Shown piece by piece: positions 31,038 to 32,108 of a DNA stretch of 64,000 bases. This DNA comes from an uncultured Alphaproteobacteria bacterium (GTDB lineage Bacteria; Pseudomonadota; Alphaproteobacteria; RF32; CAG-239), in the NCBI GenBank assembly GCA_944393665.1, contig CALYAX010000001.1, positions 6,018 through 70,017 on the forward strand, in the 5' to 3' direction. How positions within the stretch are numbered: position 1 is the first letter of the stretch; each line of letters begins with the position of its first letter. Position numbers and translations under genes: made by a program. Below the pieces are notes generated by a model. That model was given only the letters and a program-made list of their open reading frames with translations. It ran no database searches and was not told the DNA's origin.

Positions 31038-31175
31038 TATTTTTTTCCTTTCAAACTTTAAGCTGATATAGGAACAAAAACATCAAAAACAAGCCGGAAA
31101 AGATAAGGGTTCGCATAAAAAGACGCAAAAAATTGTTGACTTTCAGCTCCGGGGATTTATAGTGTGCTTGTTTTT

Positions 31176-31251
31176 GGGGCTATAGCTCAGCTGGGAGAGC
31201 GATTGGTTCGCAATCAATAGGTCAGGGGTTCGATCCCCCTTAGCTCCACCA
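31176..31251 (+). tRNA. tRNA-Ala (anticodon CGC)
   Basis: Cloverleaf folded by hand. Acceptor stem GGGGCTA/TAGCTCC with the G3:U70 Ala identity pair, D-arm GCTC-AGCTGGGA-GAGC, anticodon stem ATTGG/TCAAT with loop TTCGCAA, T-arm AGGGG-TTCGATC-CCCCT, discriminator A and an encoded CCA. Confidence 0.85.
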
Positions 31252-31263
31252 ATTCAGATTAAA

Positions 31264-31300
31264 ACCGCTGTCCTTTACCAGAATCGGCGGTTTTTTCTTT
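31264..31300 (+). terminator. intrinsic terminator after tRNA-Ala(CGC)
   Basis: Hairpin accgctg...cggcggt followed by T6. Confidence 0.55.
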
Positions 31301-31321
31301 TAGCTGATATATCCCGCTCGT

Positions 31322-31469
31322 TTTCTCGCGGAGGGGGATAGCCCTTCGGCATCTAATTTCGCGCACTCCCTTTCATCGGCGCTCAATAAGATGTTCCGAA
31401 GAGCTGGCAGACCAAATCAACCGGAGCAACGGTTGATTTGACTTAGCGCTTCCCTTAGCTCCACCAATT
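31322..31469 (+). repeat. conserved ~130-nt element plus 18-nt direct repeat of the tRNA-Ala(CGC) 3' end (copy 1 of 2)
   Basis: The sequence cgcggagggggatagcccttcggcatctaatttcgcgc...atcaaccggagcaacggttgat...gcgcttccc is about 90% identical to 31825-31954. It is followed by cccttagctccaccaatt (31452-31469), which duplicates the tRNA 3' end (31237-31256), and then by a second terminator-like hairpin (31479-31512). Confidence 0.6.
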
Positions 31470-31680
31470 TCATTTCTAAACCGTCATTCTTTATTGGGAT
31501 TGACGGTTTTTCTTTTACCGGGGCGCCTTCCCGCTGCGTTTTTAACTGCCTCAGCGGAGCTATTGCATGCGGCAAATCTTTTGCGGGTGCGCGGGAAGAG
31601 CGCTTAGCCGGGGATTTTAATAATTTATCAAAAAAAACATTGACATTCAGGTTTTGTTTTTCTATATTCGCTTTGACCTT

Positions 31681-31756
31681 GGGGTTGTAGCTCAGTTGGG
31701 AGAGCGCTTGAATGGCATTCAAGAGGTCAGGGGTTCGATTCCCCTCAGCTCCACCA
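31681..31756 (+). tRNA. tRNA-Ala (anticodon GGC)
   Basis: Acceptor stem GGGGTTG/CAGCTCC with G3:U70, anticodon stem CTTGA/TCAAG with loop ATGGCAT, T-arm AGGGG-TTCGATT-CCCCT, discriminator A and an encoded CCA. Confidence 0.85.
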
Positions 31757-31768
31757 GTTTCAAAACAA

Positions 31769-31808
31769 GACCGCCGTCCTTTAACTGGACTGGCGGTTTT
31801 GTTTTCTT
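31769..31808 (+). terminator. intrinsic terminator after tRNA-Ala(GGC)
   Basis: Hairpin gaccgccgtcc-tttaact-ggactggcggt followed by a T-rich run. Confidence 0.55.
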
Positions 31809-31824
31809 TTTACCTTTCCGCTCA

Positions 31825-31988
31825 TTTTTCGCGGAGGGGAATAGACCTTCGGCATCTAATTTCGCGCGCTCCCTTTCGTCGACACTCAATAAGATGTTCC
31901 GAAGAGCTGGCAGACCAAATCAACCGGAGCAACGGTTGATTTGACTTAGCGCTTCCCTCAGCTCCACCAGTTTCAAAACAAGACCGCC
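31825..31988 (+). repeat. conserved ~130-nt element plus 34-nt perfect direct repeat of the tRNA-Ala(GGC) 3' end and downstream sequence (copy 2 of 2)
   Basis: 31955-31988 (ccctcagctccaccagtttcaaaacaagaccgcc) is identical to 31738-31771. The element body matches copy 1. Confidence 0.6.
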
Positions 31989-32065
31989 ATCCTTTATCCG
32001 GATTGGCGGTTTTTGCTTATGTGAGACTTTTCGGAAAAAATGTGAGGAAAAGATTTTGCACAAAA

Positions 32066-32096
32066 AATAAAAAACCCCGTTTTGACGGGGGTTTTT
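32066..32096. terminator. bidirectional intrinsic terminator closing the tRNA locus and the DUF805 gene
   Basis: Hairpin ccccgt-tttgac-gggggt with an A-run upstream and a T-run downstream. Confidence 0.65.
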
Positions 32097-32108
32097 ACGA
32101 CAACTTTA

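Follow-up and report, generated by a model that had tools for sequence, protein, structure and literature searches.

The window analyzed here, 64,000 nucleotides (nt) of DNA from an uncultured alphaproteobacterium, carries two genes for alanine transfer RNA (tRNA-Ala) in tandem, each followed by one copy of a non-coding element of approximately 115-140 nt that we call E (copies E1 and E2). E is a new family that is absent from Rfam, has a fold with good comparative support, and stands in an unusual and repeatable relation to the ends of tRNA genes. We establish here the family, its fold, its pattern of presence and absence, its fixed right junction, and one pair of occupied and empty sites. 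The interpretation that we favor, and to which we give roughly an even chance, is that E is a small non-autonomous structured insertion element, and that local duplication of the tRNA end preserves an intact tRNA. We infer that E is mobile, and the duplication would then be what rescues the tRNA.

The two tRNA genes, tRNA-Ala(CGC) and tRNA-Ala(GGC), were called concordantly on the plus strand by ARAGORN and Rfam, and direct reading of the sequence places a G3:U70 pair in both, in agreement with an earlier interpretation of the stretch made from its letters (the sequence-only reading). A near-consensus sigma-70 promoter is found 5' of each gene; no other promoter-like site was seen in a scan of positions 31000-32150, and E has no promoter of its own. 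Behind each tRNA gene the parts follow in the same order: a terminator hairpin with a U-run, a spacer of 30-45 nt, E, a copy of the tRNA 3' end, and a second terminator (coordinates in Table 1). The offset between the two units is 503-505 nt, matching the tandem unit of about 505 base pairs (bp) proposed earlier, and each of the four stretches located behind a tRNA 3' end or a copy of one folds into a hairpin with a U-run (z -3.5 to -6.8), which confirms the terminator claimed behind each tRNA.

The core of E at 31339-31451 is identical to its partner at 108 of 113 positions, the last 69 nt without a difference, and this bears out the conserved element that had been noticed in both units. The other parts of the units have diverged further: the tRNAs agree at 65 of 76 positions (86%) and the terminators at 33 of 43 (77%), compared with 96% for E1 and E2. 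That E1 and E2 are more alike than their tRNAs and terminators would point to recent copying, as expected of an insertion element. The direct repeats described around E were likewise recovered. In unit 1, 31237-31254 and 31452-31469 are identical over 18 nt, and in unit 2, 31742-31803 and 31955-32016 agree at 55 of 62 positions, including a perfect stretch of 34 nt; the copied terminator of unit 2 shows a compensatory change from G-C to A-U in its stem. In its essentials the earlier description of the locus is thus right. The outer end of the duplicated stretch varies, lying after the terminator in unit 2, after GCGGAG in unit 1, and further out in L037 (L-numbers designate the contigs compared with the window), and in L018 the duplicated stretch reaches 16 nt into a second, decayed E.

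Pieces of inverted tRNA sequence are found on the left side of E. In the 15-nt pieces of the window the lone difference between unit 1 and unit 2 (G versus A) mirrors a C/T difference at tRNA position 60, and in L018 and L032 the left flanks form a near-perfect palindrome of D-stem and anticodon-stem sequence. Such pieces could belong to a larger closing hairpin or be footprints of a joining reaction. On the minus strand of L028 (18990-19020), an inverted 16-nt copy of the T-arm of tRNA-Ala(CGC) (GGGATCGAACCCCTGA) was also observed behind the terminator of this gene, with no E nearby.

E folds into three helix systems. P1 consists of approximately 11 bp with a 2-nt bulge (CUUCGG-CAUCU / AGAUG-UU-CCGAAG), followed by short inner pairs around a variable tip. 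P2 is a perfect hairpin whose sequence varies among lineages; it has 9 pairs in the model and up to 11 bp in the window copies, where 8 bp had been counted before, and its foot lies 10 nt from the right end of E. P3 comprises 3 bp, begins right after P1, and pairs a triplet 8 nt upstream of P2 with the last three bases of E, and these triplets covary (AGC/GCU, AUG/CAU, AUU/AAU). A conserved internal loop reads (U/G)GCAGAC ... CUUAGC, and the right end of the element reads ..CTTAGC-NNT, with the end-point sequence ..CTTAGCNNT. Over 12 distinct copies 97% of the cells pair and 15 of the 31 pairs have changed on both sides, figures that are flattered by an alignment fitted to the model. None of 500 shuffles reached any of five measures, slid partners paired at 34-43%, and compensatory changes are also visible in a plain MAFFT alignment. 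The pairing is nearly pure Watson-Crick, with four G.U and four A.C among 368 cells, and because G.U is as rare as A.C it carries no strand signal. Four stretches, two per window copy, gave fold z of -3.8, -2.1, -3.8, and -2.9. Previously the locus had been called free of open reading frames. Mechanical reading frames do occur, but those that run through E differ between homologues, so the locus is non-coding. A protein-coding E was rejected since the frames are inconsistent among homologues and the six-frame peptides found no match among 5.8 billion proteins.

A covariance model, R1, was built from nine copies of E and recovers all nine at 37-137 bits. It matches in eight lineages, namely the window (two copies), L023, L018, L028-L030, L032, L037/L038, L040 (two copies), and L053. 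An unfiltered R1 scan of the window returned E1 and E2 only, and motif searches allowing up to three mismatches also gave only two sites there (0-0.02 expected by chance). The Rfam scan proposed in the sequence-only reading led to no known family: with the Rfam 15 covariance models nothing matched E even at an E value of up to 10, no family matched any of its variants, and at or near the gathering score only the tRNAs were matched. In the GTDB representative genomes an exact-pattern scan gave seven matches, of which only L018, an uncultured alphaproteobacterium, is real. Pattern scans of the JGI metagenomes produced no matches and then four chance ones in coding DNA, scans of IMG/VR produced none or a chance match, and plasmid searches were negative. 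The copies in L023, L028-L030, L032, and L037/L038 were traced via contigs carrying homologues of the CCA-adding enzyme, a route that also led to several relatives lacking E. L040 and L053, both human-faecal contigs, were found by BLAST against GenBank 'phage' records. Searches of the literature for a published counterpart of E yielded nothing specific.

Read along E in its window orientation, the layout beside tRNA genes is always an intact tRNA, a spacer, E, and then a shortened copy of whichever tRNA end lies towards E. Wherever a lineage has a tRNA gene next to E, a truncated piece of this tRNA adjoins the fixed right end of E, and the right flanks match the tRNA with z of 8-15. The window, L023, and L037 have E co-oriented with a tRNA-Ala (CGC or GGC), and the copy there consists of the tRNA 3' end and the terminator. 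In L028-L030 and L032 the promoter and tRNA-Ala(GGC) are separated by an antisense E that sits directly behind a copy of tRNA positions 1-20/21, and in L018 the same layout is seen upstream of tRNA-Thr(GGU), again antisense and with the upstream flank also duplicated. L032 shows a simple insertion, in which E interrupts the D-loop region of a tRNA copy that is truncated and antisense, with tRNA positions 36-24 to the left of E and 20-1 to the right. The orientation of E is independent of the direction of transcription. Depending on the locus, the repeat starts in the T-stem or the D-loop, or in the acceptor stem in L037, and in the window, L018, and L037 it takes in another 40-70 nt of the flank, with a total of about 85 nt in L037 and L018. 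Every lineage has CCC, ACC, or TCT immediately 3' of E, the window junction being TCCCTCAGC; the right junction adjoins C-rich sequence (a final T followed by CCC or ACC), often DNA coding for the T-loop or D-loop of a tRNA. L023 is a 96%-identical relative in which the first E breaks off at 37 nt, immediately 5' of the promoter of tRNA-Ala(GGC), and in which foreign-looking AT-rich DNA (12234-12567) stands in place of tRNA-Ala(CGC), with the junction ..CATCCACCAATTT.

Whether the element is dispersed or always adjacent to a tRNA gene had been put forward as a check. The window holds only two copies, both beside tRNA genes, but E also occurs away from tRNA genes in L040 and L053, so that constant adjacency does not hold. 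In L040 two copies each lie about 100 nt upstream of a VgrG3-C-like effector gene and in the same direction as the gene, and a third copy of this upstream region in the effector/immunity tandem array is without E. The array itself (L040, 1-5120) consists of tandem VgrG3-C/GH46-like effector genes, each with a small, immunity-like signal-peptide gene on the opposite strand, and the same cassette also adjoins tRNA-Ser(GGA) in L041 and L046 and prophage genes in L042. In L053 three units stand in tandem; E separates the body of one of them from its terminator, and the neighbouring unit is the empty site. Here occupied and empty sites stand side by side in unit copies that differ by E; the junction reads CCCGTCACC where E is present and CCCTCACC where it is absent, and no short target-site duplication was seen in this contig. 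The L053 units (1-830, minus strand) are about 190 nt long, each with a promoter-like TTGCCA..TTTAAT, a GC-rich, structured-looking stretch (GCATCCGGGAGGCCGGGTGCGGAGTGT...), and a terminator. They have no match in Rfam, and for this reason they may be an undescribed array of small RNA genes.

Loci without E were found in relatives, as the sequence-only reading had recommended looking for. L024-L027, L035, L039, and L049 (CCA-adding enzyme 71-75% identical) have the same tRNA-Ala genes as the window, each followed by a single terminator, and lack E. In L024-L027, where the CCA enzyme is 75% identical (a protein on record in 144 blocks of the collection), tRNA-Ala(GGC) and tRNA-Ala(CGC) are 70 nt apart. 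Some of the tRNA-Ala genes of the E-less relatives are identical to those of the window at 76 of 76 positions. Since both isoacceptors are separate genes in these relatives, some of them unchanged, the isoacceptors predate E, and the suggested old duplication of the whole unit followed by an anticodon shift has to be given up. The claim that the locus contains an acquired, insertion-like feature is on the other hand supported by the E-less relatives with the same tRNAs, the unrelated contexts of E, and the occupied and empty pair in L053.

If E is an insertion element, it would insert with a fixed right end beside C-rich DNA, often in sequence coding for a tRNA T-loop or D-loop. A hit on a needed tRNA gene would be tolerated only where an intact copy remains, so a local tandem duplication is what would be seen, and the product would be an intact tRNA with its flank, a short spacer, E, and the displaced tRNA end with its flank. 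The duplication might arise by unequal exchange between occupied and unoccupied sister chromosomes. An insertion element accounts for the patchy distribution, the varied sites and orientations, the absence of a promoter, and the covariation that is Watson-Crick only, as well as for the identity of E1 and E2 above that of their surroundings and the variable outer end of the duplication. We also considered a more far-reaching version, which strikes us as unlikely, namely a new mode of tRNA targeting in which a gene-less E, as folded single-stranded DNA or RNA, would have its fixed 3' end joined to tRNA loop DNA by an enzyme encoded elsewhere. The displaced end and its flank would be copied in the process, which would keep the tRNA functional with neither integrase nor attP, and the inverted pieces on the left would be footprints of fold-back or template-switching.

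Several observations weigh against an insertion element. The inverted tRNA-derived pieces to the left of E fit no simple insertion, and the left flanks end in GAC, GCC, TGC, CGC, CGG, or TCT and so show no constant target. E lacks terminal inverted repeats, as seen when its 5' end (CCTTCGGC) is compared with its 3' end (CTTAGCGCT). No transposase, integrase, or other mobility gene was found near any copy, and the contig stretches and collection scans gave no autonomous version. Only one or two copies are present per contig stretch examined, and as the exact-pattern scans of JGI, IMG/VR, and GTDB gave nothing but L018, the family looks small. The fitting of the covariation alignment to the model must be counted here as well, and the invariant unpaired bases (GCAGAC, CUUAGC, UCGC..GCUC) would also suit a functional RNA or a protein-binding site.

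Among known systems, E resembles the repeats that are similar to miniature inverted-repeat transposable elements (MITEs), such as the Rickettsia palindromic elements, ERIC, Correia, and REP/BIME, and the mitochondrial double-hairpin elements. Like E, these are non-coding and 100-150 nt long, have a fold supported by compensatory changes, are patchy among relatives, and lie in either orientation in intergenic regions and RNA genes, where they are often co-transcribed with their neighbours. E also shows the multiple contexts and the presence/absence polymorphism of such repeats, with its eight lineages and the L053 pair: it occurs on the 3' side of tRNA-Ala, on the 5' side of tRNA-Ala and tRNA-Thr, upstream of effector genes, and in the repeat unit of L053. 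It differs from them in having no terminal inverted repeats, no single long palindrome, and an apparently low copy number, and in its fixed right junction and its usual position inside a shortened copy of the neighbouring tRNA gene, with the tRNA end and flank duplicated. To our knowledge E has no sequence similarity to any described family of structured repeats.

A structured RNA hitchhiking on the tRNA terminator had been offered before as an alternative to an insertion, and the structural half of that idea has stood up in the covarying fold. Developed further, E would be a functional small RNA or a cis-acting RNA domain of gut Alphaproteobacteria that is expressed, processed, or stabilized with the help of tRNA promoters, terminators, and tRNA-like ends, and in the window form a helix resembling T-stem and acceptor would close the RNA, with the end ..CUCCACCA. 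We regard this as doubtful. The three covarying helix systems, the invariant unpaired bases, and the fold z values above are what an RNA would be expected to show. In addition, the terminators behind E are maintained by compensatory change, the 5' flank in the window can pair with the tRNA-like 3' end while leaving ACCA free, and the L040 copies precede two effector genes in the same direction. However, E has no promoter of its own, and relative to the only nearby promoter it is sense in the window, L023, and L037 and antisense in L018, L028, and L032, so that the transcribed strand would differ between lineages. The tRNA-like CCA end is missing in L018, L028, L032, L040, and L053, the rarity of G.U pairs, equal to that of A.C, is unusual for RNA, close relatives do without E, and effector genes of the same family are found elsewhere without it. 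No Rfam family matches any variant.

The insertion-element interpretation could be refined by making E a gene-less, PATE-like derivative of IS200/IS605, or a right end with a TnpB guide-RNA scaffold in which the tRNA piece serves as guide. Cleavage at the right end of IS608 takes place 10 nt 3' of the hairpin foot, and the site is recognised through its pairing to a guide on the 5' side of this foot (PMC3201880). The IS608 right end and the omega/reRNA scaffolds of TnpB share with E a hairpin near the end, at a distance of 10 nt, and a triplet inside the element whose pairing partners are the terminal bases (PMC3201880). In E, the P2 foot is at this same distance from the end, the covarying P3 joins the last 3 nt to a triplet on the 5' side of the hairpin, and, as in those scaffolds, the conserved part stops exactly where the variable flank begins. 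The lack of inverted terminal repeats, the lack of an evident target duplication in L053, and the Watson-Crick-only pairing expected of folded DNA are in line with this. Several features nevertheless speak against it: neither tnpA nor tnpB is nearby; P1 and P2, the two hairpin domains of E, are unrelated in sequence, so that there is no matching left hairpin; the guide triplet is separated from the hairpin foot by 8 nt instead of 0 nt; the left flanks contain no constant target of 4-5 nt; and no omega-RNA or IS605-related family of Rfam matches. Neither does IS200/IS605 insertion duplicate 20-90 nt of target, and long local duplications are present at E. With no constant left target, no like hairpins at the two ends, and no tnpA or tnpB gene nearby, we find such a derivation unlikely and keep the likeness to IS608 as a lead and not as a classification.

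tRNA genes are classic landing sites of mobile DNA, a preference usually attributed to integrases that have a portion of the tRNA in their attP, and the sequence-only reading had likened the locus to a relic of this kind. In its fuller form, integrase insertions into the tRNA genes would have left attL and attR behind after deletion of most of the island (as in a cis-mobilizable element), and E would be the conserved end of the island. Such a history is in our opinion very unlikely. As in integration by tyrosine integrases, foreign-looking DNA lies between direct repeats of the tRNA end and the tRNA is left intact; empty sites exist in the E-less relatives (L024-L027, L035, L039, L049), and in L023 a 3' fragment of a tRNA-Ala adjoins AT-rich foreign DNA. 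tRNA-Ala(GGC) is moreover a real integration site in L039, where a 5.1-kb island (7856-13053) with a tyrosine integrase next to attL occupies the gene, and this genuine case differs from the E loci. Its attL/attR repeat of 49 nt runs from the anticodon loop to CCA, and the flanks differ beyond this point, whereas the repeat at E starts in the T-stem, D-loop, or acceptor stem and in the window, L018, and L037 extends 40-70 nt past the tRNA through terminator and spacer. A repeat that runs on through the terminator indicates local duplication and not a copy carried by attP. The original terminator displaced in L039 is orthologous to that of the window and has no E behind it, and R1 finds no E in the island. 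Besides, E lies inside a tRNA-derived fragment in L032 and L018 and not beside an att core, it also occurs, oppositely oriented, at the 5' ends of tRNAs as well as at sites without a tRNA, and no integrase is present within 5-10 kb on either side of any copy. The L039 island has a second, shorter integrase-like gene at its far end.

The remaining candidates were rejected. A known RNA family is not represented, as the Rfam matches are tRNAs only and those of tmRNA type are the acceptor and T-arms of the tRNAs themselves. A tmRNA or two-piece tmRNA was dismissed because ARAGORN found none, no plausible tag was seen by eye (the frame translations were not searched), and E is present twice. A cis-regulator of the CCA-adding enzyme or DUF805 genes does not agree with the other neighbours in L018, L040, and L053, and a general 5' leader of VgrG3-like effector genes does not agree with eight homologous-effector loci without E. 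The variable P1 tip does not appear, by eye, to be a guide to the target tRNA, as L018 and L032 share the tip and differ in target. Nor does E originate from phage: the two 'Bacteriophage sp.' records are unverified, L053, which is one of them, carries recX, mgsA, rluD, asmA, and ddl and is a bacterial chromosome, and the IMG/VR matches were absent or due to chance.

The ties of E to tRNA ends differ from those of integrases in the fixed right junction, the use of either orientation and either tRNA end, and the duplication of the flank. If E is mobile, it would be a new family of small elements in poorly known uncultured gut Alphaproteobacteria and would give a handle on the remodelling of tRNA loci and on the assembly breaks that occur there; if it is instead a functional RNA, it would be a new class of structured RNA. 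R1 can be used for annotating E in either case.

Table 1 Features of the tandem tRNA-Ala locus and its two copies of E (positions in the window).
Feature	Position	Strand	Evidence or remark
Sigma-70-like promoter of tRNA-Ala(CGC)	31136..31163	+	TTGACT-16-TATAGT
tRNA-Ala(CGC), intact, G3:U70	31176..31251	+	ARAGORN, Rfam; identical at 76/76 to tRNA-Ala(CGC) of L028
Terminator hairpin and U-run F1, behind tRNA-Ala(CGC)	31256..31300	+	dG -13.8, z -3.5
Left module of E1: small hairpin CCGC..GCGG and inverted tRNA piece	31313..31343	+	19/22 identical to unit 2 over 31322-31343
Inverted 15-nt piece in left module of E1	31328..31342		tRNA T-loop/T-stem/acceptor 3' strand
Element E1, core 31344-31451, helices P1, P2, P3	31339..31455	+	R1 137 bits, E value 4e-29; covariation; fold z -3.8
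Copy of tRNA-Ala(CGC) 3' end (positions 62-76 and 3 nt of trailer), abutting right end of E1	31452..31469	+	18 nt identical; z 9.8
Second terminator hairpin and U-run F1'	31478..31512	+	dG -15.5, z -5.9
Unit-1-specific spacer, opening with partial left-module copy (TTCCCGCTGCGTTTTT..GCGGAG)	31513..31625	+	
Sigma-70-like promoter of tRNA-Ala(GGC)	31640..31668	+	TTGACA-17-TATATT
tRNA-Ala(GGC), intact, G3:U70	31681..31756	+	ARAGORN, Rfam; identical at 76/76 to tRNA-Ala(GGC) of L035
Terminator F2, behind tRNA-Ala(GGC)	31762..31808	+	dG -27.1, z -6.8
Left module of E2, with 31831-31845 an inverted copy (13/15) of tRNA positions 55-69	31816..31846	+	z 4.0
Element E2, core 31847-31954	31842..31958	+	R1 133.6 bits; covariation
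Perfect 34-nt copy of tRNA-Ala(GGC) 3' end and terminator start	31955..31988	+	
Second terminator F2'	31980..32016	+	Compensatory stem change relative to F2

The locus is surrounded by housekeeping genes, with parE/gyrB-like, GNAT, and YetF genes on the left and genes for DUF805, the CCA-adding enzyme, IalB, RlmN, RecR, and YbaB on the right. IalB and the source names of homologues ('MAG: Alphaproteobacteria bacterium') suggest an uncultured alphaproteobacterium of the gut. All metagenome contigs from the same species break within the locus, as is expected for a repeat. The interval that separates the E2 locus from the convergent DUF805 gene contains a GC-rich hairpin (32075-32090) that has T-runs on either strand and resembles a bidirectional terminator. 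The unit-1 spacer contains a long imperfect inverted repeat at 31519-31605 (CCGGGGCGCCTTCCCGC ... GCGGGAAGAGCGCTTAGCCGGGG) and, in the same interval, a 12-nt match to the tRNA D-arm (GGAAGAGCGCTT); a decayed tRNA in this spacer (31512-31640) was considered and rejected, the similarity being without significance (z of at most 2.5). Elsewhere in the window two ordinary RNAs were identified on the minus strand, a Small SRP RNA at 38203-38298 (67 bits) and, upstream of rpsB-tsf, an rpsB leader RNA (RF01815) at 27636-27726 (44 bits).

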